Shown piece by piece: positions 8,536 through 60,564 of a DNA stretch of 64,000 nucleotides (the first letter of the stretch is position 1; the number at the start of each line of letters is the position of its first letter). Location of the stretch: contig OZ076420.1 of NCBI GenBank assembly GCA_964187785.1, positions 20,212,001 to 20,276,000 on the forward strand, written 5' to 3'. Origin of the DNA: Amphiscolops sp. MND2022. Its lineage: Eukaryota. Made by a program: the position numbers and the translations under genes. The notes beneath the pieces are model-generated. The model searched no databases. It was not told the DNA's origin and saw only the letters and a list, made by a program, of their open reading frames with translations.

Positions 8536-8580
<45 letters not shown>

Positions 8581-8698
8581 TCCTCTAAACTTTTTGGCGG
8601 ACTGGTGCTTTGTAAAGACACGTTCTTGGACTACGTCATTTTTGAACGAATTTTTCAGCAATTTCCAAAATTTTCGTTGATCACAGGGTGACGTTACA
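7952..8698 (-). repeat. 3' LTR of the non-autonomous element, contains (CT)20
   Basis: Matches 10806-11530; microsatellite at 8537-8576. Confidence 0.8.
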
Positions 8699-8710
8699 TC
8701 CACTCCCCGG
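8699..8710 (-). promoter_or_regulatory. Polypurine tract
   Basis: Minus strand reads GGGGAGTGGA immediately before TGTAAC of the LTR. Confidence 0.6.
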
Positions 8711-20913: not shown

Positions 20914-21030
20914 GTGGCTGTTTGAACCACGTCATTTTCCATTGTAGTTTCGCCTGTGGTTGTTTTAACCACTTCATTTTCCGTTGTATCTTCGTTTGTG
21001 GCTGTTTTAACCACATCATTTTCCGTTGTG
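20914..21030. repeat. 42-bp (14-aa) tandem repeat in the integrase C-terminal tail
   Basis: About 2.8 units starting at 20914, 20956 and 20998; encode ENDVVKTATNEDTT-like repeats. Confidence 0.8.
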
Positions 21031-27333: not shown

Positions 27334-29278
27334 TTCGGTTGAGAGAGAGAGAGAAAGTATCTTTGGAAAAGTTGAATTCTTCAAAGATTTAAGTTTTCTT
27401 TTGAACACGTTATGATAACGGAACAGAACTAATTATTACAAAGCAGGTCAAAAACTAACTGATTTACATGTATGTTTTACATATTTATACCTTCCCAGCA
27501 TCATTTGTTCCTCACCTAAAAATTCCTAGGTATCACAAAAATCGGTTTTGTTCAACAAAAAGCGCTGATGATTCATATTATTTCAGTCCCGCGTCAAAAA
27601 ATCAGGTATCAAAATTCCTAGTTGCGTCAGTGTTCCGTAAAACTTTGTTGAAAATCATTTTCGTTCAGGCGATTCATTTCCTGTTTGAGCTTCAAAATTG
27701 CGGCAAAATTGAAGTCTAGCTGACATTTTCATCAGCGTAGGCACGCCGGCATGAACAATTAGTCAGCAATCAAGTTAGGAAATTGAAGTTCGAAGTAAAA
27801 GAATGACACTCAAAAATGGCGACGGAATCGATACCAAATGAGTTAACTTGGAAGCGGAAGAAAAATGTGGAAGTTTGGTATGAAAGAACAAACGATGCTG
27901 AAACGGTAATCCCAAATTCGAACATATGAATTATCTGCTAATGGCATACTACATCATTCATATTGAACACAAATTAAGTCCAAACGGGACTTTAACGGAA
28001 TGTAACAATGGTTATACAGCTAATTAGATGAGCGCAACATATTTGTAGTATCAAGTGGAAAGCAACTTCGACATTTTACACAATAACCGTGAAATTTGTC
28101 AGAACATAATCATAGTTTGGGTCAAAGCATAATCATAGTTTGGTCATTAGCCTGATTGTTGTTATCACAAAATACAACTGTTATTACTGACTTGAAAATA
28201 AGGAATTAGCGTTGACCTTACGTCTTGCATTAGGATTATTATTAGGATATTTTAAGTGTCATAGTAAACCAAGTAGATTTGTTCCATTAAGGAAGTACTA
28301 AACAAAACATAATGTCAACGCGATCTAGTGATTTATCATGATGATACAAATCCAGAACAAAAAATTACCATTGCAATTTCTATCATCCTTCCTTACAGTA
28401 CGGTTTTCTTTATATAAGAATCATAACTCTTAAATCTTTCAAACGCGTCGATATAAAAACTTCATTTGGATTTCATTTGAACCAGTATTTCTCATTTGCG
28501 ATTTTACAATTCGCTCCGTAGATGCTACGTACATATTAAGATTATCTATAGCTGAACAGCGGAATACAATTTTACAATCCGCTCCGTAAGTGCTCCGTAC
28601 GTATTAAGTTTGCTTATAGCTGAGCAGCAGTAGCAAGCGGAGTGAAAACGGAGAGCGTAGGCGATTCTATTCTCTTTTCTTAGCTGGTAAGCGTTGCTAG
28701 GGGCAACCAAGCGTAATTCTATTGGTACGAGCTCAGATAATTCCGCCGGCAAGCGACGCTATTGGTCCGTAAAAATAGAAACATCCGTTACTAGCCTAGT
28801 TGAGTGACGCTGTCATAACGTTGTAAACATTTACTTAAAATCACTTGACTGCGATTTTAAGTGGATATTTAACAACTACTTTAATATTGGAATACATCTC
28901 GGAGTTAAACGTTGTTTCTGTGTTTTCATTTTAGTGTGGAGCGCCAAAATGATCCCGTTTGCAACATTATTTAGTGTTTAGATTGGAGTGGAAAACTCAG
29001 AAGATAAAACCGGAAATAAAACGGTGTTGCGTGTGAAATCATTAGACCGGAAGTTTTAGCTAGTTTAAAGTCATTTCTGAAAAATCTTCCGTAACGCTTA
29101 CGTTGAATTCTGTATTTGAAAATTATTCGCACTTATTTAACTGTACTGTAAGTAGAATTTTGATTTGGTTAGTTTAACAAAGTTTAAAAGTATTTACTCT
29201 GCCTTTGTCCATGTCCTCTGCCGAATCCCGGTACCCCAGAGCAGCAAGTAAAATTACGACCGGGAGCGGGTCGTGACA
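26955..29278 (-). repeat. Gypsy-A 5' LTR (2,324 bp)
   Basis: TGTCACGACCC...GTCGTAACA on the minus strand; abuts the PBS. Confidence 0.92.
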
Positions 29279-30197: not shown

Positions 30198-30713
30198 TTG
30201 ACGTTTATTCAACAGTTTCTATCTATCCAGCAAAAAATTTTTTGTAAATGAGATCAATTAATTCACCATTACCAAAATGTTAAAGTCTGGAATTTGGTGG
30301 TAGAAATTTCGAATGTTTTTGTCCATTTCTCATATCAGTTCGGCAGTAGGTAAAACACCCCACTTGCGCAAGGCATGGATGAGTATTATTGCACGAGAAT
30401 CTAGCGTATCATTTTCTGTAAGAAGGTTCCAATTGTTTGAACTTCTATTTCTTGTTTGACGTTTATTCAACAGTTTCTATCTATCCAGCAAAAATTTTAA
30501 TTCTAAATGAGATCAATTAATTCACCATTACCAAAATGTAAAAGTTTGCAATTTGGTGGTAGAAATTTCAATTTTTTGTCCATTTCTCATATCAGTTCGG
30601 CAGTAGGTAAAATACCCTACTTGCGCAAGGCATTGATGAGTATTATTGCACGAGAATCTAGCCTATCATTTTCTGTAAGGAGGTTCCAATTGTTTGAACT
30701 TCTATTTCTTGTT
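30198..30713. repeat. 258-bp tandem duplication (2 diverged units)
   Basis: Units start at 30198 and 30456 (TTGACGTTTATTCAACAGTTTCTATCTATCC...); covers the 3' end of the decayed LINE. Confidence 0.85.
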
Positions 30714-33600
30714 TCTCTGTTTTGAGTTCCAATGCTAAGAGTTTCGAAACCTTTTAATATTTGTTTAGGTGAAAACTTCAGAATCTCGTAGACATGATAC
30801 TCAAATACTGTTCTGATTTTTAGATCTTTGAACTTTTCTGTAACGCTGGTCCTGGTGGGAACTTCATCAAATGCTTTCCTGAAATCAACATAAACCCAGT
30901 TCGTTTTAACGTTGGACCACCCGTTTGTTTCTATTTGTTTTAAAAGAGATGTTGCGGCTTGGACAGTATCTTTCTTTTTTTTCTGAACCTGCATTGATTT
31001 TCTGAGAAGATTCCAAATTTTTCAAGAAAGTTCATCAATCTTTTATGTATTACTTTCTAGAACAGCTTTGATAAGTTACCCAGAATAAACATTGGCCTGT
31101 AATTGGAAGCTACATTTGTTTCTCTGACGTTAAAAATTGGCATTACTTGAGCCTTTTTAATAATTTGAGGAAACACACCTACTTATATGCATTCATTGAA
31201 GGCTTGAAGGCAGTTTTTAGTTAAGGACTAACAATTTCGGATGTTTTTTTCAAAACTGCCACCTCAATGCGATCCATACCAACAGACTTTTTGTTTTTCA
31301 ATGTGGTAAGGTGTGGCTAAAGTTCAGCTTCAGTAACTAGACGGAGGAAAATTGATTGCAGCTGTTCAGCTTGCTGACTGTTGCAATGGTGAGTTAAGAT
31401 AGTGTCAGTGGTAACAACGGCAGTTATGAAGTAATTATTGAAATCCTCAACAGAAAAGTCACCACATTTTGTCACTTGATTGCTAGTACCTTTCACTTTT
31501 TCTACATATCTGAAAAGTACCTTCGAATTATTGTGGTCAAATGTCCTTTGAACTTCATTTCGCTTTGCCTTTTTTGACTTCCAATATGACTTCATTTCAT
31601 TGGTTCTTGTATTTCTCGTAATCTCTACTTGGTTTTGTTTTGATCCATAAGTGATACTGTTTATCTCTGTTTGCGATGCGTCTCTTAAAACGATTCGTTA
31701 TCCATGATTTTTTGGGTTCACGTCTTTTTACTTGCCTTATTGGAAAATATTTGTCGGTTGACTCTTTGATTGCATTTTCTAGATATGATTAGCCTATTGT
31801 ATCTCGTTCATTAATTTCGCCCAGAGAAAGATTCATGAACAAAAGGAACTTTTCGCAAGAGAATGGGTCTTCTAATTTCTTCAGAGATTGACATTCTTGG
31901 AACTTTTTTGTGGTTTCATAAGATATTTCGAATGATAATTGTAAGCTGTAATGATCTGAGAAAGTAGCTTTCAATCCGGGTTAGTTGGACAGGACTGTTT
32001 CTGTATATGGAGTCTTTGCACTTACTTGATGTTGCTGTTTCTCTGGTAGGCTCTCACAAACTAACCAAATCCAACCGTTCAGCTGTTAGATACTGCTTTC
32101 TATTCCTAGAAGGTTCACAATAAAAGCAAGTAACTGTTATTTTCTTTTTCTTTTTGAAGTCAGCAATTTTCACGGATATTGACTCGTAAGCTTCATCCAA
32201 GTGTAGTAGTTTAGCCTCCAAGTCCGATTAACCTAAGTAGTCACTCCGCGTCCTCGCTTTCGATTTCTGGTACCGGCGAAAGGTCTCTGATATCCTTCGA
32301 AGCAAAATAAATCCGGTTCATTTTTGTTTTTCCACCGTTTTCCGGTTAATGCGATAACGGAAGGCTTAGATTGTGTTGTTATCATTTTTCTTTTCTGCAC
32401 GTTTGAGCGCAATTCAAAGATATCTGCTCATCTATTCCTGGATCTTTAGCTGTGCTTCCAAGACAAAAGGCTTTTAAAGTTGCCATTCCTTCTGCATCTG
32501 GTGAGCTGCGTATTCGTTTCAGTGCATTTTCCAGTTGCGACACCATACCGGATTTTGTGGGTGCAGGAGTAGCAATTACAGTCGTTGATTTGGCAAAATT
32601 CAGATGTTTCTTTCTCACAGCACAGTGATTGATATCTTTAACTGCTCGAACGCTTTTTACAACCACTGAAATGAAGGTAACATCTTCTTTTTTTCTGAAA
32701 AACTTTCACATTGCAGTTTTGGATTGCTGTTGTGAGACCCAAATCATCAGCGTTCTGTTTGACAGACCTTTGCAGGGTTGGAAGTCTTTCTTTCATGTAG
32801 ATTGGTGTCCGATTTATTGGATTGGACACTCTTGCCAACCAAAACTCACGGCCAAAAAATTCATTTTTTTAGTTAAAATATATGAATATCACCACGATGA
32901 TTGCAAGGGTATTGTTGTTATTTTTCCAGGAACTCAGAAAATGGCAAGCCTTGAAATCCGATGGTTGGGCAGAATAGCTAAGAAACCGTCGGAAAAAGTC
33001 ACATACCTGTAGATCCAGATGTTCAATATTCGGATTGAGCGGGGCATTCACAATTATGATGGAGTCGTTGGGGAATACGCCACACACTCGTTAACCCTTA
33101 CCTCCAGATCCGATACACGATTCTCCAATGATGAAATTTTCTCGTCGTCAAACGACAATTGCCCCAATAGACGAACTATCAGGGATCGTAAAATGGAGTT
33201 TTCAAAATCAAGTTCAGACATATTTGAGCGATCAATGTTTCAAATTCACCAAGAACAAGAACAATTACGAACAATTAGACCGTTTTCTAGCTATGCATTC
33301 TTGTCTGTGCTTCTGGGGTATGCTACTTGATTGGCCATAAGCAAACCAAAGGTAACTTCTTCAATATTGCAGCGTTCATTATCTTGATTTGAGAACTGTG
33401 GGCATCTGAGAGACGTTTTTCAAAAACGATATTATAGACTGTAGATAGGAGGTTTTATCTATGTCCTCAGTCGTTTATTCAAAAATATTGGCTAGTTTTG
33501 TTTTCATTAGGTTTGCTAGCGTTTGTTTCACGCCTTGCTTGATTACAACTCAGCATTTGTTAACTTTCTCAATTTGTTGTATTAGCATTTTTCGGGATCG
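30200..33600 (-). pseudogene. Decayed two-ORF LINE (CR1/L2/Jockey-like) with the RT core deleted
   Basis: ORF2 remnants TFSDHYSL (APE C-term), KAQVMPIF..SNYRP...LSKLF.KVI..RL and VYVDFRKAFD, fused directly to post-RT sequence with no YxDD. Possible ORF1 remnant (PIYMKERLP) at 32.6-32.9 kb; the upstream boundary is weak. Confidence 0.65.
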
Positions 33601-33695: not shown

Positions 33696-35196
33696 TGTTG
33701 CAGCCAAGTACCTGCATGAGAGCCGGAGTGCAACGCTGAAAAGGTGAATGAGGACTGGTAGTAACTTGAAGTTCCACAACTGATTTTATGATATGTTATG
33801 TTTGTTTTGCATCTGTTTTATTGATGTCATGTAAATATGCTATTTTGGGTAAAATTGTTAGTTCTGTTGATTTTGTTCTTTTAGATGACTTAATACATCT
33901 TAGATTGTATTGAGGTTTAGTTTTTCATGTTCGTTAATCAAGTCGATGAGTCATGAAGTTGAGATTTATGTAATATGTGATTCACAATCTCTTTTGGAAA
34001 CAATATGTCTTGATCATTGTGCGGTAACATACATTTCAAGATAGTACGTTAATGCGTCAACATACGTTTCGAGAGAAAGTGTATATACGCCAAAATGCGT
34101 CATTTCCGCATAAGTGCTTATATGCGGTAATATGCGTTTCGATGCATAATGAATACTAGTCAACATGCGTTTTTAGCAGTGTTGCTCTCCAAATTAATGA
34201 TGTACTGAATCTTAATGTTGATTAGTCATGCAAATACCATTCTTAAGTAATTCCATACTTTCCTCTAGGGTTTCCTAGACCTTATCATTTCGTACTTGAT
34301 TGTCATTCCTCCAGGGCCTTTGTACTATAAATAGACTGATGTTATTGTGATGTAATTCTATTTATACGTTTCCCAAAGGGTGATGCCCGTTAAAAGGGAT
34401 GTCATGATTTTTATAGACGGCTAGGTTAACTTGATGATACACAACTTTTCCAATTTTCCAATTCTACTCAAGTGCAGTCGCTTTAAAATCTACAATTTTC
34501 TTCTGTAAACTTTCATCTTTCCTATAGTTTTCTCTTTCCAATTTGGTTTTGCCAAATAAAAGGATCAATTCAAATTCTTCCCCAATAACTGCAATTCATT
34601 TTTCAATTGAGAAAGGATGGGAAACAAAAGAAATAGACGATCTAGAAGGCTAGAAACTCCATCCCCAGAGAGGGGGATAGAGAGAACTCAGACAGAGACA
34701 CCGATATCAGGTAATGTGACTTTAACTAATAATGATGCGGTTATTCAAAGTAATTTAGGTGAAAATAACTCTGATTACAACTTGGTCGAACCCAGCCAAA
34801 TTAGCAATGAGATACAAGTTTGGACTCAAATAATGGAACAAAAAAGCAACGACAGAATTGAAAAGATGCGAGAAGAAATGGATAACAATTTAGAAGCAAT
34901 TCTAAGGGAAATAAAAACTAACAAAAGCTCATCAACAGTGACAAACCCAAGATCAGATATAAATGATATACAAGAAAATCAGCAATCGGGATCCAGAATA
35001 GATGGGTCTATAGGAGTTCACGCATCTAATATCGAGAATCCAGATTCTGAAAATGAAGTTTTTCCTCCCAGGGTTTCTAAAATGAAAGACTTGAAACATC
35101 CTGCAAAACCTTTGTTTCGAAGTGAATCCGATGTAGATGTAACTATACACTCAGACGAAGAGTCTGACGCTGAAAACCTAGATGAGGATTATCACA
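33696..35196 (+). repeat. Gypsy-B 5' LTR (1,501 bp), includes gag start at ATG 34617
   Basis: Matches 48009-49501. Confidence 0.93.
34021..34172 (+). repeat. 33-bp degenerate tandem repeat in LTR U3 (also 48334-48485)
   Basis: Units GCGGTAACATACATTTCAAGATAGTACGTTAAT / GCGTCAACATACGTTTCGAGAGAAAGTGTATAT and following. Confidence 0.65.
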
Positions 35197-35332
35197 TCAA
35201 CCTATGCAATTTGAACCGTTGCCAATTCAACCGCGCACAATTTAAACCTATTGCATTTTCAACAGTCCACAATTTCGACCTAAACTAATCTTGGCTATTT
35301 AATCTTAATCAATTCGGTTGAGCTATTATTTC
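35197..35332 (+). repeat. 136-bp copy of the element's own 3' flank (49502-49637) replacing the PBS and part of gag
   Basis: Identical except one base (35311 A vs 49616 C). Confidence 0.9.
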
Positions 35333-35340
35333 TATTATTT

Positions 35341-36216
35341 TTGAGCTAAGATTTGTTTCATACAACACTTCGAATGCAACCAAACCTAACAGAGGACATG
35401 AAAATTAACCATTTTCACGCCCATCTCAGAGGTGTGGCCCTCAAAACATTCAAAAACATACAAAGAACACCAACAACAACCTTAGAAGACATACTAAAAG
35501 TCTTCCGAAGAAAATTTGTAAAACCGGAGTCTAGTGCTTCTGCAAAACACAGATTTCACAGACTCTCATTCGACCCAGAGAACCAGAAACTTTCGGATTT
35601 TTTAGAAGAACTCCACGAAAGTGCTGAAAAGCGTTTGAGGAGAACGCCCACCAAAGGATTGAGAACCTACTCTACGCAAAAATGCCTCCTCACCTTAAAA
35701 AATCCATTAATCAGGCCTACTTTGAGAATGGAACGTATGATCAAATAGTTAAACATCTTGAACGAGAGATGGAACTTAACGGTCTTGAGGCAGACGAACC
35801 TCTTGTCAAAACCCAAATGACCGTTACCAAAAAAGCAGAAAACACTGAAAAACCCAACAAAAAACAAAATGACAAAGCTAAAAAACAAACCCCAAAAACA
35901 GTACCAGATAAAACCCTCAAGAATGATCAATGCCGTTACTGTAAAGAGGGAGGCCACATGATGACGGACTGCCCCAAACTAGCAAAACGGCGTAAACTTG
36001 AGGAAGACCCAATTGCTGAAAAATGTCACAATTGCAAAACCCCCGGACATGATGAAGAAAACTGTTACTTCGGTGCCAATATGGAAAACCGTCCACCAAA
36101 ATGGACCCTAACAGAGGCACAAAAGAAAGTCATAGAAAAATACAAACAAGCCAAAAAAACCCATCAGACCAAAAATGGAACGACACCAACAATCCTCGTC
36201 GAAGGATTTAAACTAG
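35341..36216 (+). pseudogene. gag: Gypsy-B gag remnant
   Basis: DLFHTTLRMQPNLTEDMKINHFHAHLRG; two CCHC knuckles CRYCKEGGHMMTDC and CHNCKTPGHDEENC; frameshifts; native stop TAG at 36214-36216. Confidence 0.88.
36207..36213 (+). promoter_or_regulatory. Gag-pol -1 frameshift slippery site T-TTA-AAC
   Basis: gat tta aac TAG followed by AATCGCCACGCC, matching the context in Gypsy-A (TGA AATCGCCGCGCC). Confidence 0.7.
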
Positions 36217-39200
36217 AATCGCCACGCCTTTATACAAATTCACCACAAAAACAAAACTTAGAAGATGACTGGCAGCATCAGCTAAGCCCAAAACCTGCAA
36301 CAACAGCAGTTTGCGAAACTCAATTAACGACACAAAATTCGCAACAATCGAGACTAGAAACTCAACACGACGACTTATACAAACTCTTACACAATGCTCC
36401 AGACAACTACTTTCTCCAACAAACAAACAACCCTGAAACCGAATCGAACTCAGAAATCCAACACACAACAAAACACCACGTAACAATAAAAACTTCTTGC
36501 AATGATAAAAAACAACCTCTTTTAAACGAAGATCTCACTGAACATATACAATTTGACAAGGAACGAAACTTGTCATACCACCCAATCTCAACTTCTTTGA
36601 CATTGAAACGAAAACGCCACATGTACTACATTCCAATGGACTTCGAAAAACTTACATTTGATGGTCTTATTGATACCGGAGCCCTTACAAGTGCAATCTC
36701 CGAACAGGACCTCAATAAAATCAAGTTGCTAGCAAATGAAGCAATCAAAGAAACTGGTCCCCTACCTAACTTCCAAATTATGGTGGCAAATGGACAATTA
36801 GAAGTCCCCATTGGTACGGTATTACTAGAATTCGAAGTGGCTGATTTCATGTTAAAAGAAAACTTCATCATCATGAAAAATCTACCAAATCCGCTAATAG
36901 GATTGTGTTTCCTCCGCAGAAATAATGCAATCTTTGATGTCAACCAAGGCATCTTAACATTTCCCTATCTGTCAATGCAACTCAAACCTGACACCCAAAC
37001 AGCAATACGTCAAGCAACACCATTGTTTGCCGAAAATACCTACACCCTACAACCAGGAGAAATACTTGCCGTAGCAAGCAAAATGCCCCATTTGATGGAC
37101 AATAATGCGACAGGAATTGTAACACCATCACAACAATTTGAAAACCATGATAGCATTGTTATCACAGCATCACTTAGCACCGTAAATAACAATGCTATCG
37201 GATATCAAATCATCAATTTTTCTGACCTACCATATACATCAACCCTTGACACCTATTCAGCGGATTTCAAGATACTTACACCAGAACAAATCAAACACAT
37301 CTAACCAGTGGACCCAGCGTTGCTATCCTTCATGATACAATATGAAGAACCAACAGAAGTCTACATAAATGAACTACTGAAAGTCCCACAACCAAACACT
37401 GACCAAGAATCATACTGGATCCCAACGCCTGGAAAACCAGGTGACCCAGCTATTTATACCCCAATTCAGCAGAGAAAATACAACGAACTTCTCGAATCAA
37501 AGGAACTCGAAAAACTGAACCCACATGATAATGAGTCAGCCAGGAAAGCATTCCTCTCAAACTTTGACTTATCCGACACAACACTCAGCCTAGACGAACG
37601 ACAAGAAATTGAAGAGATTCTCGTTTCCCGATATTTTTGCCAGACATCGTTTCGATATAGGCATAAATCGTGAGTTCAAAGTCAAACTTACACCAAACGA
37701 TGACAGACCAGCTTTTAGCCAAAGTCTGCCAACTCTTATCAACCTCAAAGGTGATATCACTGTAGAACTCGCACTTCTGCACAAATATGGTATCATTACA
37801 ACTCTACCATTTTCTAAGTACGCAAGCCCAATTTTTGCACAACGCAAACCGAATGGGCGCCTTACTCTTTTAGTAGACCTCAGAAAAATCAATAATCTCA
37901 TCACGGAAGATTACACCAACAATAACCACCCGGTAAGCACTTTATCTGATGCAGCCCAACACATGGCAGGGATAAAACTCTTCTGCAAATTAGACTGCTC
38001 CCAAGCTTACCACTGCCTACAAATGGCAGATTACCAATCCATCCAGATGCTTGCCTTCAACTTTGCAAGCAGAACATTTGCTTATCGTCGCCTCGCCCAG
38101 GGTCTCAGCAGATCACTCTCTGCATTTTCTAGCTTCATGAGAGAATTCCTGGACAGAGCAATTAAAGCTAACCAATGTGCCCGATATGTCGATGACATCG
38201 GCATAGCAGCAAACGATACAAAACAATTGTGTGCAAACACCAAAACCAAATGTATCCGAAATGCAGGACTGAAACTCTCAAAGTCCAAATGCCATTTCGG
38301 AGTTAAACAAGTCGACTTTCTAGGTCGCACCATCACACCCGGAGGAGTAGCTCCTCAAGCCGATAAAGTCAAAGATTTCCTCTCAAAACTCCGATTTCCA
38401 AAATCAAAAAAGGCGCTACAAAGGTATATCGGATTCCTAAACTATTACCGAAACTATATACCACGCCTTTCAGAACGGCTTTCCCCGTTCTTCAAACTTC
38501 TCAAAGAAACATCCAAATTCTACGTACCAACAAACTTGGTAGAAGACTTCGCGAACCTTAACAAACTCCTGGAAAATTCCTGCCAATTAGCTCTAAAACA
38601 ACCACTGAAAAACAAACAACTTATAGTCATGTCCGACGCAAGTTTCACCGCAGCTGGATATGCCATCATGATTGAAGACAACCCGAACCAAAAACTCCAA
38701 TCGAGACGTAAAACATATGCACCCGTAGCATTTGGTTCAAAAACCTTCAACCCAACTCAAACGAAAATGTCATTTTATACAAAAGAATTCCTTTCCATAT
38801 ACTTTGCATTTGTTGAATTTGGACACCTCATGTGGGGAAGCACCTTCCCAGTAATCGTGTTCACAGACAACCGTTCAGTGACCCGCTTTTTTCAAACCAA
38901 AATGATCCCTCCAGCACTTTGGAATGCCTGCGATTACGTCTTGCAGTATAATTTTGTAATCGCCCATGTCGCTGGATCGATGAATACCGCTGCCGACTTC
39001 CTGTCTACAACAGAAGCCGACCCAACTGAAAAACTAGAGATGACCATTCGTAATGACATCCACACGAAAGCAATCGAAGTCAATATCCAATCAACAGGCA
39101 TTGTTGAAGAAGAACAAATCTACATCCTCCCAGGTGATGAAATAGACGATAATCAACACTAGGAAGAAAAGCAAAACGTGCGAAATCATGCCCAAACGGA

Positions 39201-41040
39201 AACCCACAATGAACCAGAAAATACCATCTTTGAGCTACAACAATTTCACAAACCCACATCAGGGTTAATTGCAGTATCATCGGGATACTTCAGAGACAAT
39301 GCAAGAATACGTCTGGAGAAGAATAACGACATAGTCGTCAGGAACCTACGAGCCAAAATTGAAGGTGACTCCTTCGACGAGAATGAATTAGCATCAGACT
39401 ATAGATACCATCACAACCTACAAAATATAACAAGAATAGAAATCAAACAAGAGGTACTCACCAGAAAATATTACACAGATACTGGAACAATATCTCATTA
39501 CCAAATACTTCTTCCGATTCAACTTTTAGATGAAACCCTTCAAGCTCTCCATGGCCATAATTCAAACCACCCAGGTATCACGAAAATGATACAAGAAGCC
39601 AGACAGAAATATTACTACCCATGTATGGCAAAATACATCAAGAAATGGGTCAGTAACTGCCAAATTTGTATCCAAACAAAACGTATCAACAATGATCTCC
39701 TCAGGACAGAACTCCTCAATTGTACAGAATGGGATCTAGGCTCAGAAGACATTCTACAGATGGACATTTTACCTAACCTTCCAGCCAGTGGAGGTTATGA
39801 TCACATTATCACAGCAATAGATGTCTTCTCTAGATATCTATTTGCTTATTCAGTCACAAAAATTAATGCAACGGCAGTTTCCAGGGTTATCATGGACATC
39901 TTATGCAAGCACACATACCTTCCAACAACAATAATCACTGACCTGAGAACTCAATTCAATGCACAAATAACGCATGAAGTTGCAGCAGTGCTCGGAATTG
40001 AACCCAAACACGCAATAATGAAACATGCCCAAACAATACGACTCCTTGAGAGAACTAAGGCTTCAGTCAAAACACACCTCAAAGCCTCAACAGGCGAATT
40101 TAGGAATAACTGTCATAAATATCTCCCTTTGGCAGTCCTTAATCACAACACATCATACCACGCATCACTCGGTTGTGAACATTCACGAGTCGTCCTTGGT
40201 AGAATACCACACAATATACTCGATTATAAACTTGGATATAACCCCAACCCAAAATACCACCCGCAAGCTGATGTAGCAGAAGAAACTCAAAAACGCATGA
40301 AGACTCTTCTAGACCAAACCAAAAAGAACATCATGTAATTTTTCCTTAAATACAAGGCCTACTATGGCCGAAAAGCAAAAGCAGCCCCGCTTGAAACAAC
40401 AGATTACTGCTACATTCTCAATCCAAAAGCTGATACACAAGCAACGAAAATACCATTTCGAGAATTCAGATGGTGTGGACCATATAAAGTCGAAAAAGTG
40501 CTCCCTAACAATAATTACATTGTACGGAGACTTGGCACGAATAAAACGCAACTGCTACACAGGATCCGTTTGCGGTTATTCACCCCGGAAGCCCCATTAG
40601 CTGATGTTTTTGTTCGTGAAGCCGATTGGCAAAAAGATGACCAAATGCCTATAGCAAATGATGATCTATATGCCCAATCATGGAACACGAACTTTGGTTC
40701 AAATCCGTTTGATGATAGTCCTCCAGATTCCCTACAAAATACTGAAGAAACTGATTATATTCCAATTCAACTACCTGAAAATAGCCGCCCTCCCTCCCCT
40801 GAATCTTCAAAAAATAGTGGGTTGAGCCCAGTGGAACAGACCACTGTACCAGACCAAAACCAGGAAAATCATGCTGATGAAAATCCACAACAATTAAATA
40901 AGAAAGATGACAACACCCAAAAAGTTCAAAAAGATGCAAATATTTCAACAGATGATGACAGTCAGAAAACCCCAGAAAATTCCCAAAACACCCCATTGCA
41001 AGAAGAACCCATAAATACCCGTGGTGAAAAATACAACTAA
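36207..41040 (+). pseudogene. pol: Gypsy-B pol, several stops and frameshifts
   Basis: LIDTGA (protease), RYVDD (RT), VMSDAS (RNase H), H-GHNSN-H..C-QI-C, LQMDILP, IITDL, LLERTK (integrase), spread over ORFs 35682-37304, 37308-37673, 37609-39162, 39178-40338 and 40498-41040. Confidence 0.95.
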
Positions 41041-41267
41041 CGACCTAATCCCAACCCAAACTACTCTGACTCATACAGATACTGAAAACAAGAACAAACA
41101 ATCTTTTTTCTTTTCCTCTCACACGTTGAGTGTATTTTGACAAGTGTACGAAAATTTGCCAATGCAACGTCAGATTAATAATGAAAACGTCATTGGTCTA
41201 AACAATTACCGAAACAACAAACAGTAATAACACATAAATAGTTTGTAGCAAAACAAAGATGTCTAAA

Positions 41268-44200
41268 CTAACTTCGCTTCCCTCGAGAAGTTTTAACTTT
41301 CGCCCCTTTGGGAGCACTTCCTCCTTCTTCTTCATTGTCGTTAGCACACCGAGACACAGGAACTATAGCCCGTCCCAAAGCAGGACCAGAAACCGGAGAT
41401 CTGCTACCACTATTGGAACGACTAATAGTAGGGGTCGAAGTGTTAGAAGGCACCACTGGCTTGTCCACTTTGAGCACTGCTTTGCGATATGCAGCCTCAA
41501 ATTTCCCCTGAAGGTTGTTCCGTTTGGGCCCACTGCTTTTGAGGATACTCCACACCGAGAACTTTTTGTCCGTGAGCAGTTCCGGTCCTCTCCCTAAGAG
41601 TCGAAACAAACGATTGATGGTACGTGTGTCCCGGTACAAATTAGAAACATTCGGTACTGTCTGGTTGGACAATTGTAAACTTGTAACACAAGAACGCGAC
41701 ACTTCATTGCCAGACTCCAACTGGGCAATGGGTACTTCAAACGAAGTGGGCAAACTGACATTGCTCGGCAAACAGAGAAAAGAGTAACGGAATAACTGAT
41801 ACAACTCAGGCCTGTTTTGCATCTCGTAGTGTGAAGCAAGAAATTGGACTAAATCATTGACCTCGGGCAAAGGACTGGCACGCAAAAGAGTGACAAAAGC
41901 CCTGTACAGGCTCACCACCTTGACTTTCTCGCTAGGGGATAACCATCCAGTCGACACGAAATGAGTGCTCAATTTTTCAATAGCACTGACGTAATTGGTC
42001 TCCGGACCCTCCACCATTACTGCTAAATCGAATGCAGCCATACCACGTGCCAAATTAGATTGAATCAGCTCATGGTCCAGTAAATCTTTGCAAAAGGCTT
42101 TGCAAAAGGAAATAGATTGTTCCACAAACTTGCTGGGACGTGGTAGCTTACTAGCTAACACTAGTTTGTGGAAATCTTCGTTCAGGATAAATTCATCAGG
42201 CGACTTGAATGACAAAACAGGATCTGTGAAATCGAGTAATATGTATCCATCCCAGTCTGTTATAGCCCCAAGAGAGCTATGGGGAAAGATATTTTGCAGC
42301 TGACTATATAGAAACACAGTGTATTGATTGAACAGTCTGGATCCATATCCAGCTTAAGTCTCAATGGCAGAAAAGGCTGAATCATCTGAAACACAACGTT
42401 ATTGCAACCCTGAACAACGATGACGTAATGGTCAAACACAGATTAGTATTAGCCAAAGAGAAATATTACGTTATAATGCAGTTTGAGATAAAACGCATAT
42501 ACGTTGTTATGGGAATCGGAGTAATCCGCTCATGCGTTATTGTGCGGATCGAGGTAATACGCATATACGTTATCATGCGGATCGAGACAACTCGCATATG
42601 CGTCACTATGCGGAAATGGAGAGATTCTGTGCATAAAAGACGTGGAGGCTAGACGTAGCTAAAATACCTAAAATAAAGAACACGGCTAATGGAAACAGTC
42701 AAATAGTATTCTCCAATGATCAAGAGCAGGAGTGCACGGCAAATTAAAATTGGTATTATTAAAAAACGACCATTTCTAACCCAAATTAGCCAAAATATGG
42801 TGGAATTTTCGTGCGCACTGAGAAATCGCACAAGTGGTGTAAATGTACGAAATAAGAAATCAATCAGCAAAACAACACACTAACAGTGGTCAATGGCACA
42901 CCGGATGATAAACAATCTGGCCAGATATGCTGTGTCGAGCCTGAAGCATTCGTCGAGGGTGCTTGGCTAAAACAACACTCAAAACAATGAAAATGATGCA
43001 GATGAGTTGTATATTATTAAAAATGGTATTCAAATTAACCTCTCGCATTTAGAAGCGGTATTTCGGCAGCCTAGAGACTTGGGCTAAATGATCACGTATC
43101 TTGTCCCAGTTGGAAGAGAGGCACTCAATAAGTCCTGATGCTTCACTGAGAGAATACTGGAGACTTAGGACGCACTAAAAGACAAAGCAAAAACAATTAT
43201 TATCTATAAATGTATAATTGCAATGAAATAGAAGAAGATGAAAACCTTTTGAAGAAGAGGGAGGGTCTGTAGCCAGTCTCGATCAAGTGCTGTCCTCAGC
43301 TTCATCAAGAGGAAATCCAGTATGGACCGGAAGTCGTGGCGCTCGATGATGTTTACAGTGGGGGCGGCAAGACACTTCTCGAAATCATTTGGTCCAAACG
43401 AATGAGCTAAATTAGGACGTTTAGTTCCTGGTAGGGTTGAAGTGAGGCATTGGTTAAGTTTGTCCCCCATCCCGACAAGACACACACAGCTCGGGGGGCT
43501 CTCAAAAAGAGTAATGAACGATGCCACCAAACCAAGGATCTTCTTCGGGATTAGTAGGCCGCGGGGTCCTGTTCCAAGACAAACTCTGTGTAGGACGTTA
43601 CCACTCCAAAAGGAAACGATAACGAGATCATTGGTGGGAGTCCTTTCAAGAGATAGTGAATAAATCCCAGAAGAAGCACAAGCTGTCACACAATAGTCAG
43701 TAAGCTCTCGAAACATGTGTATCAGGACTCCCTGTGAACAGATAGAAACAATGATTAATGTGAAAAGATTTCAAAACCAAACTTGTTAAAACTCAGCAAA
43801 TCATCTCCACCCCACTTCTACCAGAACAACAATTACCCCCTATAAACGAAATATGCAGAACTGAAAACCTGAACATGAGGCTTACATAAATGCGGCGTTG
43901 ATCCCAGTTTTGAACAGGCAGCTGATTGTTCCTGGATAAACGAGAGATTCCGTCGTAAATCCCTGTCAAGCTGTCCAGATGCCCTCCATTTTTCAGACCA
44001 TATTCGAGAATGCCGACTAGGGACAAAACTCCTTCAGTTGGACTAGTTGATGATCCGAAATCAGGGACAGAATGCTGTCCCACCAAAGGTCGTAAGCTAT
44101 CCAATTGTGGGGCAATGGGATAAGTGTTTTTTGCAACCTTCTTAGCTTCAATCAAAGCCATACCCTGCAACTCCCGTTCATTCTTGTCAAATAGGGCCAT

Positions 44201-45553
44201 TCCGAAGATTTCCCTCCTCATTCGATGTTCCTTGATGTAATGACTATCGCAGCGGTAATGTGCCATCAACTCAAGCGTTCATCTGCTCATTAAAGACAGT
44301 TCGGACCGGCAAACCCGGCACCACCACTTGTATGGTGTTTTCTCTGGATCAATTGGTCCAGTAGCAGAGAATTTTAAAACCGGATGTTTGTGAAACATAT
44401 GAGATTTTAGAGAGTACCTCGGTCGTTGCCTTTTTCGCAACGATAACTGATCAGGATTCTGAGGATCCTGCATGGAAATTCCAGGCGACGATTGTGCGTG
44501 TCTTTCATCCTGGCTAGAGGTTAAAGGTAATGCTGTTCCAAAATTAGAGGGACTCTCAACGATGCTGAAAGGAAGAGACGTTGCTTGTTCATCTCCACCA
44601 GCTAGGACACTCCGGGGAATCCTACCGAGCATATTGGATAACAACATGACTTCTTGTCGTGTGACACTGAGTCCACAAGGCTCAGTATTGGCATGAGTAT
44701 CAGCTGTGGGGTTCTCTAGATTCTCACTGAGTGGAGTACACATTTGCCCTTGATCAGGAGCATCTAAGCCTACGACTCGAGGCGAGGGTGGATCTAGCGC
44801 TTGGTTGCTAAAATAAGTTAGGAACTGGGAGGATTGAGGAGAGGGGATCTGGGAAGAAGATGGGACAGTCTCCTCAGTAACAGCGTCTTGGTTAAAAAGA
44901 GTAGGAGTGAGGTCCATATCAGTCGCTTCAGAATTAATAATCTGACGTACCGAACAACTAGCAGAGAAAGGAGGTTGATTCAATGTAGGCAAGGTAACTT
45001 CTGTCCCTTGTGCAGTAATTTCACGTACTTCAATGACAGGGGATCTCTTAGCCTCATCGATCTGTAACTGAGCAAGATCTGGTGTCTCTGGACAGTCAGT
45101 CTGTTGCTGGTCGTCAGGGGAAACAACTTGAAGAGGATGATAAATTTTCGTCGGTGAGCGACCAGGAGACGTTTGGATCGATCCAAGTTCAACTAAAACA
45201 AATGATCCGTTTTAGAAAATAAATGGGTCAAATGGACGGAACCCGTTTGATAATTGCTAGTTTTTGGATACGAAAACAGGAAATGAAAACGGAAGTCGTT
45301 CGAAACCAAGAACGGAAGCGTTTAAAAAATCCCTCAGATTTGATCAAGATTAAAATCTGATCAACTCTGATAATAGTCTAGCCAACTAATTGTCATTAAA
45401 AACCCACAGAACTTTATTTCAAATTGAAAATCTGAAACAAATCAAGTTGAACTAACCAGGAGTAGTACCCGACGGGCTTTAATAGCACCAAGAAGCACTT
45501 TCCCGACGAGAGGGTTGATCCTCCCTTGTCTTCCGGCGACTGGGAGAGTCCAT
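41268..45553 (-). pseudogene. Antisense 6-exon gene of Gypsy-B: BED-like zinc finger + hAT-transposase-like protein, 1,075 codons, four premature stops, no frameshift
   Basis: Exons 45553-45457, 45192-43886, 43731-43246, 43174-43040, 42966-42885, 42385-41268; total 3,225 nt, divisible by 3; all introns GT..AG. In-frame stops at 45481, 44281, 43051 and 42356. Zn finger WWCRVCRSELSLMSR*TLELMAHYRCDSH. Confidence 0.82.
42484..42616 (+). repeat. 33-bp degenerate tandem repeat inside the last intron of the antisense gene
   Basis: Four units with the core ATGCGGATCGAG..ACGCATAT(A/G)CGT. Confidence 0.7.
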
Positions 45554-46083
45554 AATGAATGAATCCAATTGCAAGAGGGGATAATTTGATTGACAATCGA
45601 CAGGAGAGGAGAACAATGATAAAATAATTGGAAGGAAAACAATTTCTAATGATGGTAACAACACAAGAAGTACACTTCGATTTGCTGAGAGGCGTTGAAT
45701 TGAGAAAAAACAGAGATTACTAAACAATGAAGACTGAAACCAATAGACAGTAACTTTTAGAAATACCAGGGGACAGAATTTCAACGATTTCAATTAAACA
45801 AAAGGCGTGGGGTAACAATTAAAGGCAGAAGAGCAAAATGAAATCCGGTTTTGGAAATCGGTACAGTTTATACTGATCGCTGATTGGTCAATTAAATGCC
45901 ATTCACTACTGCCAGAATGCTTGGTATGTTTAATTGACGTGAGACAATCTGAGTGACATATGCGCTAACAATGGTAATTACACAGTCAAAGCGAGAGAGA
46001 TTTTGGAAAGCAAATACACGATGAATTACATGCAGCGTTAAGGCAAATATACGATAATATGCATATCAAGCAAAGACGGATAT

Positions 46084-46200
46084 GCGGCAACATGCGGATC
46101 AAGTGAAAACGTAAACTCGTCAACATACGGATCAAGTGAAGACGCATACTCGTCAACATACGGATCGAGTGAGTACGAGTATGCGGCAACCTACGTTTCT
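46084..46200 (+). repeat. 33-bp tandem repeat in the intergenic promoter region
   Basis: GCGGCAACATGCGGATCAAGTGAAAACGTAAAC / TCGTCAACATACGGATCAAGTGAAGACGCATAC / TCGTCAACATACGGATCGAGTGAGTACGAGTAT. Confidence 0.8.
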
Positions 46201-46987
46201 CGTTACATATACAGCAGGAGATGGATGCAGTATTGACAGATGATACTAAAAACACGAGCAACGTATTATAGCCTATTATTATGCGTTAATACACGAAAGT
46301 TACGTCACTATGAGATGATTGAACTGAACTGATTTTGATGAAACTTTTTTGACGTCACATTTCATTTAAAGGGAACACATCTGTTTTAAATATACGTTTA
46401 ATGATCAGACCCTAATAGCTTTTAAATGCGGGACTGAGTTCAAACAAAACTACGAAGAGGACAACACATTGAAAATGATGAAAACTTTAATAAACGTTCT
46501 TTTTATACCATTTTGTATTTCCATTGGTTCTACTCATGAAATTTAGTTAAATGTAAAATTGATTGAGAATTTCCATTGATAAGGTTCTGAGTCATTCGTT
46601 GAATTTCTCTTCAAGTTATATTAGATTTGTTTACTTATCATATAAAATGACAACGAAATGCTGTGAAGAGAATAAAGAAGGTGCTGTTAGCGGGAAAACC
46701 CTGAAGAATCACCTTAAAAGGACTTGTTTACACCTTGTTGATGATGGAACCCATTGCTTCATAGCAAAGGAAACCCTTATAAGGGGATTGTGGAATATTG
46801 TTGACATGACACTCATTTTTTCCGCGGGTTTTCCTTATTTTTCACCAGGAAATCATAAACTAATCACCATATGGTCTATAGCCGAGTCAAAACCAGTTGC
46901 TCACATTAAACTTCACTGAATAATCTCAAAAGAACTATCATCCAAGGCATAAGTTACTTTCATCGTAAACCCGACACTAAAGTGGGA

Positions 46988-48052
46988 ATGGACAGACTAC
47001 AAATCAGACTGGACGATCTGATGGACACCTTTGGATCATCGCCTTCTGTAATAGATATCTCTAGTGAGAGTGGAGAAGAGTTCACTGTTGAACCCGGGAA
47101 TGTGAATGCAATTGAGGAAAGATTCCGAGTGGGTGCTCCAGGATCAAACGCAGTGACTGCCTTTGCCGGGGCAGCCGCCATGACTCTTTTTCCCCAGTCA
47201 ACAGTGTCACAGTTAGACACAGAAATAATAGATACTGCCGGATCGCAAATAGAAAGACAATTGCTTGACCTGATTGATGAACACCAGAGCAATCATTCAA
47301 TGACACCGTCTTCATTTGTGAGTTCAGAATTTGAACAATCACCTGAATCTCCGGATGACCAGGAAATGACCCAACAACCCCCACTAAACAGCTACGGCAG
47401 ACCATCAGCGGCATTTCTTCCTACCCCGAGAGAAAGGGACAGGGGCAGAGGATTACCACGAAGATCACGACCTAACTACCCACCGGGCTTTAGTGCTGAT
47501 ATCAGTCATTTTACCGACCTGGGAGACAACATCTCAGAAGTCCAAACAGCTGATCACAATAATGTGAACGATTATCTTCATAAAAGGCCTCCTGGTGCTG
47601 CTGCTGCTAACTCACACCTCACAAACCCAAATCAACTAACAAACCCAGTACCACTGATGATACAAATTCCATCAGTCATACCTAACTTTGTGGCAGTTCA
47701 CAACGACCCACCAGTGCCTCCATTTATACAACAAGCCTTCATCGTACAGGCGACACACAGTACAAATATATTATTTCTACCAGCGGAAGAAAGAAATGTT
47801 TACCGATTATCACCAACAGTCATGCCTAATATTGCAGGGTTCTGCGATTGGTGCCGTAAAACTTATGATCAGATAGCCCTTGAGATTTTAGGCGAATACC
47901 TTCTTGCAACAGCCTACGAAGCCGAGACAGTACGTGATCGAAATGTACGTTCCCGTGCCTTCATAGATGGATTTGAAGCAGCCCTATTCACCTTTAAAAA
48001 TGCGGGACTGTTGCAGCCAAGTACCTGCATGGGAGACGGAGTGAAACGCTGA
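46988..48052 (+). CDS. Gypsy-B ORF3, 354 aa, mostly low-complexity, with a CxxC-containing C-terminal region
   Basis: Intact ORF from ATG 46988, reads through the PPT and stops 44 nt inside the 3' LTR. Motifs VIDISSESGEE, RGRG, FCDWC. No signal peptide or TM segment. Confidence 0.78.
   Translation: MDRLQIRLDDLMDTFGSSPSVIDISSESGEEFTVEPGNVNAIEERFRVGAPGSNAVTAFAGAAAMTLFPQSTVSQLDTEIIDTAGSQIERQLLDLIDEHQSNHSMTPSSFVSSEFEQSPESPDDQEMTQQPPLNSYGRPSAAFLPTPRERDRGRGLPRRSRPNYPPGFSADISHFTDLGDNISEVQTADHNNVNDYLHKRPPGAAAANSHLTNPNQLTNPVPLMIQIPSVIPNFVAVHNDPPVPPFIQQAFIVQATHSTNILFLPAEERNVYRLSPTVMPNIAGFCDWCRKTYDQIALEILGEYLLATAYEAETVRDRNVRSRAFIDGFEAALFTFKNAGLLQPSTCMGDGVKR
47996..48008 (+). promoter_or_regulatory. Gypsy-B polypurine tract (imperfect, AAAAATGCGGGAC)
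   Basis: Directly precedes TGTTGC at the 3' LTR start. Confidence 0.5.
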
Positions 48053-49501
48053 AAAGGTGAATGAGGACTGGTAGTAACTTGAAGTTCCACAACTGATTTT
48101 ATGATATGTTATGTTTGTTTTGCATCTGTTTTATTGAGGTCATGTAAATATGCTATTTTGGGTAAAATTGTTAGTTCTGTTGATTTTGTTCTTTTAGATG
48201 ACTTAATACATCTTAGATTGTATTGAGGTTTAGTTTTGCATGTTCGGTAATCAAGTTGATGAGTCATGAAGTTGAGATTTACGTAATATGTGATTCACAA
48301 TCTCTTCTGGAAACAATATGTCTTGATCATTGTGCGGTAACATACATTTCAAGATAGTACGTTAATGCGTCAACATACGTTTCGAGTGAAAGTGTATATA
48401 CGCCAAAATGCGTCATTTCCGCATAAGTGCTTATATGCGGTAATATGCGTTTCGATGCATAATGAATACTAGTCAACATGCCTTTTTAGCAGTGTTGCTC
48501 TCCAAATTAATGATGTAGTGAATCTTAATGTTGATTAGTCATGCAAATACCATTCTTAAGTAATTCCATACTTTCCTCTAGGGTTTCCTAGACCTTATCA
48601 TTTCGTACTTGATTGTCATTCCTCCAGGGCCTTTGTACTATAAATAGTTTGATGTTATTGTGATGTAATTCTATTTATACGTTTCCCAAAGGGTGATGCC
48701 CGTTAAAAGGGATGTCATGATTTTTATAGACGGCTAGGTTAACTTGATGATACACAACTTTTCCAATTCTACTCAAGTGCAGTCGCTTTAAAATCTACAA
48801 TTTTCTTCTGCAAACTTTCATCTTTCCTATAGTTTTCTCTTTCCAATTTGGTTTTGCCAAATAAAAGGATCAATTCAAATTCTTCCCCAATAACTGCAAT
48901 TCATTTTTCAATTGAGAAAGGATGGGAAACAAAAGAAATAGACGATCTAGAAGGCTAGAAACTCCATCCCCAGAGAGGGAGATAGAGAGAACTCAGACAG
49001 AGACACCGATATCAGGTAATGTGACTTTAACTAATAATGATACGGTTATTCAAAGTAATTTAGGTGAAAATAACTCTGATTTCAACTTGGTCGAACCCAG
49101 CCAAATTAGCAATGAGATACAAGTTTGGACTCAAATAATGGAACAAAAAAGCAACGACAGAATTGAAAAGATGCGAGAAGAAATGGATAACAATTTAGAA
49201 GCAATTCTAAGGGAAATAAAAACTAACAAAAGCTCATCAACAGTGACAAACCCAAGATCAGATATAAATGATATACAAGAAAATCAGCAATCGGGATCCA
49301 GAATAGATGGGTCTATAGGAGTTCACGCATCTAATATCGAGAATCCAGATTCTGAAAATGAAGTTTTTCCTCCCAGGGTTTCTAAAATGAAAGACTTGAA
49401 ACATCCTGCAAAACCTTTGTTTCGAAGTGAATCCGATGTAGATGTAACTATACACTCAGACGAAGAGTCTGACGCTGAAAACCTAGATGAGGATTATCAC
49501 A
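48009..49501 (+). repeat. Gypsy-B 3' LTR (1,493 bp)
   Basis: Matches 33696-35196; followed by the TSD TCAAC. Confidence 0.93.
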
Positions 49502-50819
49502 TCAACCTATGCAATTTGAACCGTTGCCAATTCAACCGCGCACAATTTAAACCTATTGCATTTTCAACAGTCCACAATTTCGACCTAAACTAATCTTGGC
49601 TATTTAATCTTAATCCATTCGGTTGAGCTATTATTTCAATACAATAATTACTAATGAATCAAACAGTTTCAAGTAATGGTACTTATTCATGAAGAAGCCA
49701 AATTGTATCAGAACTGGCGTAAAATTTGGTACCTTTGAATTTAGAAATGTTTGAAAGTTAAAATCACCAAAATAATTATATAACTAATTAGCCAAATAGT
49801 TGATGTCGCATGCGACTATTAACCAAAATAGTTGAGGTCGAAGGTGCGGACGGTTGAAAATGCAAGAGGTTCAAACTGTGAGCGGTTGAAATGGCATCGG
49901 TTCAAATTGCATAGGTTGAAATTGCATTGGATGATAAAATGTCCTGACACCCCATTTATGATGCGCAACGAGCTGCCAGTTATATTTTTTGCTTATTCAG
50001 TTTACAGTTTGCAACGTTAACCATCTTCACTAAAGTTTTTTAAAATTGTTCTTGGACTATTCGTTTTTGATCAACGCTGTCGGTTATCTCGACAAAGAGT
50101 AAGCAAGATCCAGTCTCCGGCTCAGTTGATGAATTTCTTCCGTTTGATGGATACACGTCGCTACGTGTCCATCTTAAGTGCCTACATGAAAACGTTTTTG
50201 TCCCAGTTGTTTTAGAACGCAGTATCTAGTGGTTTATGATTCGAAAACTCCAAGTTTGTCTCCAATAGCGTAAATTTAGCAGTATTTTACTGCCCATTCA
50301 ATGGCGAGTAGCGCTGGTTAGTTTGTAGAGTGTTTCGATTCATAATCACTCAACTATTCAGCGTTGCACGAAAAGAGTCCCAGTCTCTTTTTGTGTTCCT
50401 TTGGATCAGGAGCGTTGCTAATCCTTCATAGCTCGCATTGCAAACAATTTGCAAGTTGTTCGCATTATCGACCTAATTATTCGTTTTACGCTTGTTTGTA
50501 CTTTGATAGATGTTTCAAGTTCTTTCTCTTTTCAGACAATCTGGAAAAAGTTCTGCTGTTTGCTCTAGACGGAGTTTGAGCTTGGTTACCTGGTTCATTT
50601 CTACGAGGTAGGATTTTAAGACTACAAAACATTCTGGTTTCATTGTTTTTGGCATTTCCTTGTAAACTATGGTATGCGGTTTCATATCTTCCTTGCATTC
50701 ATCATCCCAACAAATTCAATTTTTTTCTCCGCTACTCACATTTGTCTTCTTCCAGCTGAAATGTTCTATCTACATTTTTATTCGGCGCGTCTCCTAAGAA
50801 AAAGTTTCCCGACTCTTAG

Positions 50820-59229: not shown

Positions 59230-60564
59230 CCTTGAATCCGGCGAGACCAACTGTAACTACGTGGCTGTTCTGGCTGCAGACACAGTCCTTTTATGGAAGT
59301 CGCTGCTCTATTTCCTGGGGGGAATGATTGCTTTTCTCTCCTGCATTGTCGTGTCCTACCCGACACTTCTTAACAGACGTCGTCTGTTCCTCCAGTTGGT
59401 CTTCAATAACTTGAAAACATTTTTTTTATAAATTAGAAACACTCGTTCATGAGAATTCCCATTTTTAAAATAATCTTTTAGAACATTTTAAAATAACTTT
59501 CATTATAATTTCTCCAATTTCACGGAGTGGAGGTCGAAAACGCATTGTTTTTTTTCAATTTGGTGCCCTTTTCGGAAACTATCTCCTCATAGCATGGTAT
59601 GGTACCAAATTTGCAGCCATGTGGTCGAGCAATTTTTAGACCTTTTTGACCTTGAGCAAGTCACTTTGAAACCACAACTTCAAGTCGACCATTAATGGTC
59701 GATTTGAAGCTGTGGTTTCAAAGTGACTTGCTCAAGGTCAAAAAGGTCTGATTTCTCGCCGTTGCTCTTTTTTATTTTTGCTTTTCTCCGTCAAAAGCGT
59801 TTTTTTTGCGTCTTTTGTCACTGACCATACCACTAAGCTAGAGAAGAAGGACTTGCTTAAAACCCAGCAATGGTTAGTTCTTATTTTTTGATTGGTTTCG
59901 TGCAACTCTTGAGCCTTAGTAAAATGAGGAGTTTGCGAAGCCGGCAATTGCTTGACTTCTTATAAATTAATTATTCAAGTTGAGTTTAAATCTAAGTTCT
60001 GGATCTGAAAAACAGTTGCAGGTAGTTGATGAACTGTAGAGATTGTTGGATTTGACAAAGAAAACTTCAACCCGACAGGTTTCTTCAAAAAAATGCTGTC
60101 GAAGGATTTCACACGAGGCAAGATCCTTGAAGTTTTAAAGTATTTTCGTTATGAACTTTACTCTTAACTTAGTGCATTGGTAAAGGAAAATAGTTTCTTC
60201 AAAATCAGGATAAGGTGAAAAAAAAAAGATTTTTTTTTCAAAACTTTAAAAAGTGAAAATTCCAACTTTTTCAATTTATCCCATTGATGGATTGGAATCA
60301 AGGTTATTCAATGTTTTTGCTCTTTATAATTGAAGACCAGTTTTTCTCAGTGACCCGTTAGAGCGCTTACAAGAAGGGACGATAGACATCCGAAGTCACC
60401 ATAAACGTCTGTGGAAGGAATGTGGCATCGGGCTAATCGTTTGCATGGGGTTCCTTGGTCGCCCGATGGCTGCTTATTTCATCAAGGATCGGAAAACCGT
60501 GGGAGCAGCTATCAATTTAATATTCATCATCAAATTCACTGTCGTCTCTTTCCTAGCTTTTTGA
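59230..60564 (+). CDS. Candidate host exons of a membrane protein (59230-59394 and 60351-60564)
   Basis: The phase-2 GT..AG join gives ...LLWKSLLYFLGGMIAFLSCIVVSYPTLLNRRRLFLH|DPLERLQEG...CGIGLIVCMGFLG...AAINLIFIIKFTVVSFLAF*. About three hydrophobic segments; family not recognised. Confidence 0.35.
59565..59880 (-). mobile_element. 5'-truncated copy of SINE S1 with an internal 112-bp palindrome
   Basis: Reverse complement aligns with 3150-3375. Palindrome at 59638-59749 with 2 mismatches. Confidence 0.75.

Follow-up and report, generated by a model that had tools for sequence, protein, structure and literature searches.

An intron-containing antisense gene in two Gypsy-type LTR elements and its probable origin from a hAT-like DNA transposase

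How does a retrotransposon come to carry a spliced gene in antisense, and what might such a gene do for the element that houses it? The question is raised by a 64-kb window (the whole stretch of DNA analysed here, 64,000 nt of contig OZ076420.1 in the 1.07-Gb assembly of Amphiscolops sp. MND2022) in which two Gypsy-type LTR elements are found (A, minus strand; B, plus strand). Each has a gene of several exons, oriented antisense, in the interval from the end of pol to the 3' LTR.

Two LTR elements and their antisense genes

Both carriers are assigned to Ty3/Gypsy by their two LTRs and by the pol order protease, RT, RNase H, integrase; their RT regions are ~71% identical and their integrases ~52%. 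Element B (33696-49501, +) has LTRs at 33696-35196 and 48009-49501 (+), with 1475 of 1493 aligned bases identical, and a 5-bp target-site duplication, and its gag-pol (35628-41040, +; protease, RT, RNase H and integrase) is interrupted by stops. Its PBS region has been replaced: directly after the 5' LTR, at 35197-35332, 136 nt of the 3' flank are repeated, with the target-site pentamer among them, where the PBS and part of gag should be. Gene conversion, rearrangement or an assembly artefact could account for it, and because of this copy the LTR identity of B may understate its age. The insertion site of B is itself a short element with 91-nt inverted arms (49502-49919). Element A (13315-28829, -), with the same pol domains, has LTRs at 13315-15186 and 26955-28829 (-; 1832/1872 identical) and a PBS; no target-site duplication was seen around it, and a purine-rich tract is absent directly before its 3' LTR (15187-15206). 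The gag frame starts within the LTR in both elements (34611-35288 in B, 25927-27432 in A), and the PBS therefore falls within coding sequence. Element A also shows a weak dUTPase-like match between protease and RT (22748-25789, -; E 0.052), and no env-like Pfam match was found among 19 long ORFs scanned.

Gene B lies on the minus strand and consists of six GT-AG exons. Exon 1 (45457-45553, 97 nt) ends in phase 1 and has a stop at codon 25; exon 2 (43886-45192) encodes a low-complexity N-terminus, a basic patch and a BED-type zinc finger (~44320-44240, with a stop at 44281 inside the finger), and ends six codons past an invariant Trp. Exon 3 (43246-43731, 486 nt) holds an RNase H-like core in which the first two catalytic Asp positions are not Asp, and is followed by exon 4 (43040-43174, 135 nt, stop at 43051), exon 5 (42885-42966, 82 nt, phase 0 to phase 1) and exon 6 (41268-42385), which comprises a helical insertion domain, the C-terminal part of a transposase fold that has lost the third catalytic Glu motif, a stop at 42356 and a basic tail. 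Gene A (16548-20478, +) has seven exons, at 16548-16683, 16797-17153, 17230-17454, 17584-18157, 18284-18910, 19045-19126 and 19276-20478. Neither copy in the window is intact, because B has four in-frame stops (codons 25, 337, 672 and 713, at 45481, 44281, 43051 and 42356) and A has two frameshifts, near 17733 and 19490.

An initial annotation, made from the letters of the window, had proposed that the two genes are orthologous. Its model of gene B, 3,225 nt long when spliced and without a frameshift, was recovered when the coordinates were re-derived, as were an 82-nt exon in each gene (19045-19126 and 42966-42885), both ending in phase 1, and a phase-0 intron six codons after the Trp in both A and B. 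The low protein similarity that it described is real: with breaks read through as X, BLASTP aligns A and B at E 5e-27 with 20.6% identity over 873 aa, and the local score is 290, compared with 44±6 for 200 shuffles. For the intron positions the outcome differs with the kind of alignment. In a pairwise global alignment the first shared intron is 5 columns off and the 82-nt exon is gapped, whereas in a multiple alignment three introns (phases 0, 0 and 1) fall in the same columns in 20/20 copies. Those 20 were picked for few breaks from 40 further copies modelled with a spliced aligner that knew GT-AG signals but not intron positions, and the 82-nt exon was recovered in 37 of the 40. By a rough figure, the chance of three such coincidences out of three is ~3e-9.

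The claim that the shared structure cross-validates both exon models stands for the three core introns but not for exon 1. The MD start and phase-1 end of that exon are weak evidence, with first introns at columns 50 and 60, and because the N-terminal regions are unalignable the first intron is no evidence of homology. The structures also differ elsewhere, B having an extra core intron (43245-43175) and A two extra N-terminal introns. In L149, a third lineage whose identity to A and B is 25-32%, introns occupy the three shared columns and the one of B that is absent from A; its model also contains a stop, a frameshift and an additional predicted intron. Genes A and B are true homologues.

Descent from a hAT-like transposase

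As to where the gene came from, direct searches were negative. Pfam scans of exons and alignments gave nothing significant, with neither a hAT nor a PF04195 match for the antisense gene and with zf-BED only at E 0.11 in 1 of 17; PF14291 had no match anywhere searched, PDB sequence searches with the antisense protein gave no match, and Foldseek returned nothing at E 0.001. Atlas neighbours were hAT clusters (0.91-0.93, with low shared-feature counts), PF05699 being present in 60% of one cluster. When the AlphaFold model of the last exon (pLDDT 85) was used in a fold search, Hermes (8edg_A) headed the ranking of 48,161 chains, with Z 5.0 and rmsd 4.9 over 179 aligned residues, and the next twenty rows aligned 54-100 residues. 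The match is the top one but weak, and helical proteins of no relation score practically as high (Z 4.9). The core-exon model is of low confidence (pLDDT 45.5), so that no more than a hint is given by the order of its strands and helices and by its many RNase H-like matches (best Z 5.3); an Atlas search with this model gave unrelated helical clusters, below 0.9.

A motif of another BED/DDE family, used as query on the genome, found four decayed BED/DDE transposase copies of this kind (L121-L124). One remnant retrieved 140 full-length relatives, the named ones from ticks, insects, sea urchin, sponge and fishes, and 119 of the 120 that were listed (P0164-P0283) form the donor family set, a kinesin fusion being left out. 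When the antisense alignment was compared with these 119 transposases, hhalign gave 98.5% and 98.8% (E 1.8e-15 and 7.2e-17) over 554-560 colinear columns, and 0.3% for a reversed control. With an HMM of the donor family, 22/22 antisense proteins scored higher than any of 220 controls (shuffled or reversed sequences), and searching in the other direction recovered 85 of the 119 transposases at E < 0.001 with Z=1000. The antisense protein is ~13% identical to the donor family.

The Ac/Hermes-type hAT ORFs of the same genome were also tried as a donor and rejected, showing no direct match to the gene (hhalign 0.1%). The donor family does match those ORFs (hhalign 87.5%, E 3.6e-6, 220 columns), but neither PF05699 nor another Pfam hAT match was found in 30 donor-family proteins, and for this reason we term the family hAT-like. 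It had no PDB sequence match, and no TIRs were found on three donor remnants. In a tree, 27 derived proteins are split from 18 transposases by a 100/100 branch, which is consistent with a single capture of a transposase gene. One donor remnant has a single open frame across the first shared intron positions, which suggests that the introns arose after capture.

The aligned copies indicate what was kept and what was lost. The C, C, H, H residues of the zinc finger are kept in 20/20 copies, aligned with the donor finger, and the Trp of the RW motif is likewise invariant (20/20). At the first catalytic Asp position 12 of the 20 copies have Glu and 8 have Gln, and the second position is non-acidic, with the posteriors of the catalytic columns being low (0.2-0.5). 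The third Glu, that of SHG..ERGF, occurs in 0/27 derived proteins as opposed to 18/18 transposases, and CxxH is unaligned in the antisense proteins. At thirteen columns, none of them the second or third catalytic position, 18 or more of the 20 copies have an acidic residue. Like Hermes and the BED/DDE family (with its FDES, MDGPN, GSCGLH, RW and SHG..ERGF motifs), the protein has a BED finger, an RNase H-like core and a helical insertion in the same domain order; unlike them it is without the DDE triad, CxxH and TIRs, and it adds introns, an N-terminus that is long and of low complexity, and a new helical tail at the C-terminus. Neither TIRs nor an 8-bp duplication were found around either gene in the window. 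On these sequence comparisons, the antisense gene is very probably a derivative of a hAT-like BED/DDE transposase in which catalysis has been lost.

Residence, selection and spread of the gene

In 40/40 loci an opposite-orientation pol lies just downstream of the antisense gene (39 with integrase, one with a pol tail), and the gene is present in 19 of 20 B-clade elements that were chosen by integrase alone. In the one exception (L125) the end of pol and the accessory ORF in sense are still present. Among ten unrelated Gypsy elements (RT 23-30% identical where matched), nine are without the gene within ~7 kb, and the tenth contains a nested fragment of the present lineage. A-type genes occur with A-type integrases at 14/14 loci and B-type genes with B-type integrases at 25/26, the 26th having a pol tail only. 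Within clades the gene and pol trees conflict (AU p 3e-12, 2e-9, 2e-7 and 2e-4, for groups chosen after distances or trees had been seen), and two loci (L049 and L052) differ in RT by a dS of only 0.09, yet their antisense genes are only 67% identical. By this evidence the gene stays with its own pol clade and is swapped between pol backbones within clades.

The initial annotation had also read the shared structure as evidence of common descent under long-term purifying selection; this holds by virtue of sibling copies elsewhere in the genome, but not from the disabled copies in the window. Of 40 modelled copies, 15 are without stop or frameshift and 25 have one or the other. Over finger plus core, in a comparison of 21 copies, six unsaturated pairs give dN/dS values of 0.11, 0.13, 0.12, 0.04, 0.10 and 0.10, and two other pairs give 0.21 and 0.33; three very young pairs (dS < 0.007) have dN/dS > 1, and between families dS is saturated or > 2.4, with dN of 0.16-0.41. 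The 61 core introns are distributed 20/22/19 by the remainder of their length on division by 3, and 51 contain a stop, so that intron length varies freely and exon phase is fixed. The sibling copies thus support purifying selection on the reading frame.

A first look at the genome gave 6,374 and 6,664 candidate places, with many near-identical young copies. In public assemblies, 178 proteins are homologous to the last exon at E 0.001, and none of the ten that were looked up had a useful name. One outside homologue matches the genome with only 24-28% identity, and the antisense-gene family is therefore probably present in other species too. No longer, full-length homologues were found in searches for them, and scans of JGI metagenomes likewise found no relative.

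Motif arrays and candidate roles of the protein

A tandem unit of 32-33 nt, of which ~20 nt form a conserved core, recurs in elements of the B clade at two places, the last intron of the gene and the region upstream of it; their LTR has related units. In the window, 33-nt tandem arrays lie in the last intron of gene B (42467-42614, -, 4.5 copies) and upstream of the gene (46088-46172, -), and the related units in both LTRs of B are at 34020-34099 and 48333-48412. A motif matrix trained on six loci identified the unit at 26/26 B loci as opposed to 0/14 A loci, on one strand and never in exons. An exact motif pattern occurs 734 times in the genome, counted irrespective of element, compared with 0 for a control. 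A types have a different duplicated LTR unit, of 58-68 nt; B subfamilies that are 61-77% identical have one motif in common, and the pairing of motif with protein rests on two clades. The B motif has a TGACG half-site, which could be bound by host bZIP factors. CpG transitions are only 1.38-fold raised (10 copy pairs), and for that reason a DNA-methylation-specific VANC-like mechanism is not supported.

Both elements also have a second accessory ORF, in sense and head-to-head with the antisense gene (15153-16040, -, in A; 46910-48052, +, in B, where it is conserved across families). Such an ORF, of 200-370 aa, stands in this arrangement at 19 of the 20 loci examined (L155-L174). It is acidic and of low complexity, with no Pfam match; a V-I-D-I-S-S-acidic stretch, which resembles a SUMO-interaction motif, is found in both clades, and a conserved C-terminal CxxC domain in B types.

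On balance we think it somewhat probable that a DNA transposase was domesticated by a Gypsy lineage and serves it as an accessory, DNA-binding regulator or activator that binds its own arrays. The origin is the firmer part: very probably an ancestral Gypsy element took in a hAT-like DNA transposon, in antisense and behind pol, before the 3' LTR, and, as profile homology, the tree and position show, retained the transposase gene for accessory use. Both the ends of the transposon and its DDE triad have been lost, and the BED finger and overall fold kept. Because the gene is antisense, its introns would not be spliced from the genomic RNA and would survive reverse transcription, as expected from established LTR biology. 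The gene itself would be transcribed from its upstream region and then spliced, and the protein would most likely be a nuclear, sequence-specific DNA-binding regulator acting on the non-coding arrays of its own element (in the LTR, upstream of the gene and in the last intron). Binding to the arrays would maintain transcription of cognate copies, an effect that VANC and TnpA have on DNA transposons of plants.

With the same origin, the protein might instead be a repressor, either a copy-number brake that works through the arrays or a dead subunit that poisons related active transposases. The homology, selection and motif evidence would fit this equally, and donor-family remnants are indeed present in the same genome, but we consider it unlikely in view of the thousands of candidate places and the many near-identical young copies, and since ~13% identity to the donor family would make mixed oligomers improbable. 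We would say the same of a role in integration, in which the protein would bind the LTR arrays on cDNA and tether or import the pre-integration complex: arrays do occur in the LTR, gene type pairs with integrase type (A 14/14; B 25/26) and the basic patches appear similar to nuclear localisation signals, but the largest arrays are internal, in the intron and upstream of the gene, and the within-clade swaps between pol backbones argue against a tight partnership with integrase. Less probable still is that the fold, given a new active site, was re-used as an enzyme or a scaffold, the arrays then being unrelated sites for host factors. The 13 acidic columns and the selection on the whole fold, beyond the finger, are what might recommend it, yet no acidic column stands at the second or third catalytic position and the first is Gln in 8/20. 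A nested or still-active hAT DNA transposon that merely prefers these elements is largely refuted and very improbable, for although nested insertions are common here (L149), there are no TIRs at either window gene, position and orientation beside pol are constant in 40/40 loci, the catalytic motifs are lost, and gene and pol clades match. That the antisense RNA alone matters and the frame is a relic is hardly credible, since the broken copies (25/40) and the youngest pairs, with dN/dS > 1 at dS < 0.007, are offset by a dN/dS of ~0.1 between subfamilies and by 61 core introns free in length with exon phase fixed.

The reading of the gene as a domesticated, array-binding regulator has partial parallels. 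Plant Ty3/Gypsy antisense ORFs (TRP28/PF04195 of Retand, gene23 of maize Grande, and RIRE2) lie between pol and the 3' LTR, occur in nearly all copies with tandem arrays nearby, and have been proposed to have a nuclear or DNA-binding role (PMC11963269; PMC7264820). The present gene shares that site and the nearby arrays, but it is multi-exon, ~1,075 aa long and traceable lengthwise to a BED/DDE transposase; the word "intron" is absent from PMC11963269. TRP28 of Retand bears a transposase name and is a partial precedent. For the plant ORFs both origin and function are described as unknown (PMC11963269; PMC7264820); PMC7264820 gives the origin of most of them as unknown and reports no similarity to other TEs.

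VANC of VANDAL (MuDR) elements targets short same-orientation motifs in tandem repeats of introns and intergenic regions (PMC5735166), and is similarly a TE-encoded accessory protein with element-specific non-coding motif arrays. VANC, however, is carried by a DNA transposon, is related to MAIN (PMC13547354) and has DNA methylation as its point of action, whereas here a putative regulator resides in a retrotransposon and the CpG signal is weak. TnpA of Spm/CACTA and other regulators evolved from transposases by loss of catalysis (bioRxiv 10.64898/2026.08.24.746577), and transposase-derived regulators are known in DNA transposons and hosts (the same preprint; PMC13547354); their carrier is a DNA transposon or a host, and here it is a retrotransposon, the whole word "retrotransposon" being absent from the preprint. 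Planarian Burro elements have other extra domains (PMC6431247). Searches of the full-text literature, apart from subscription journals, Repbase entries and supplements, listed no LTR element described as having a spliced antisense gene of hAT origin.

Examples of domesticated transposases are known from host genomes and from DNA transposons themselves; in the present case one class of mobile element appears to have domesticated the enzyme of another. This would provide a traced origin for an antisense accessory gene of an LTR element, listed as an open question in a 2020 review, and the antisense site shows how a retroelement can carry a spliced gene. The captured gene may aid the self-control of the element. 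How LTR elements escape silencing becomes directly testable, now that there are candidates for both protein and motif, and another clade to control for specificity. A broader proposal is possible but doubtful: a retrotransposon lineage present in several eukaryotes would have a sequence-specific anti-silencing module of its own, in which a domesticated hAT-like transposase on clade-specific motif arrays would act with the head-to-head second protein and its SUMO-interaction-like motif, the cassette being swapped between pol backbones like a serotype.

Three further features of the window lie outside elements A and B. Two direct repeats, 93% identical and ~2.85 kb apart (7953-8699 and 10807-11531), are possibly a small non-autonomous LTR element; a tandem duplication of 257 nt is present at 30198-30714, and a 56-nt perfect-spaced palindrome at 59638-59749.
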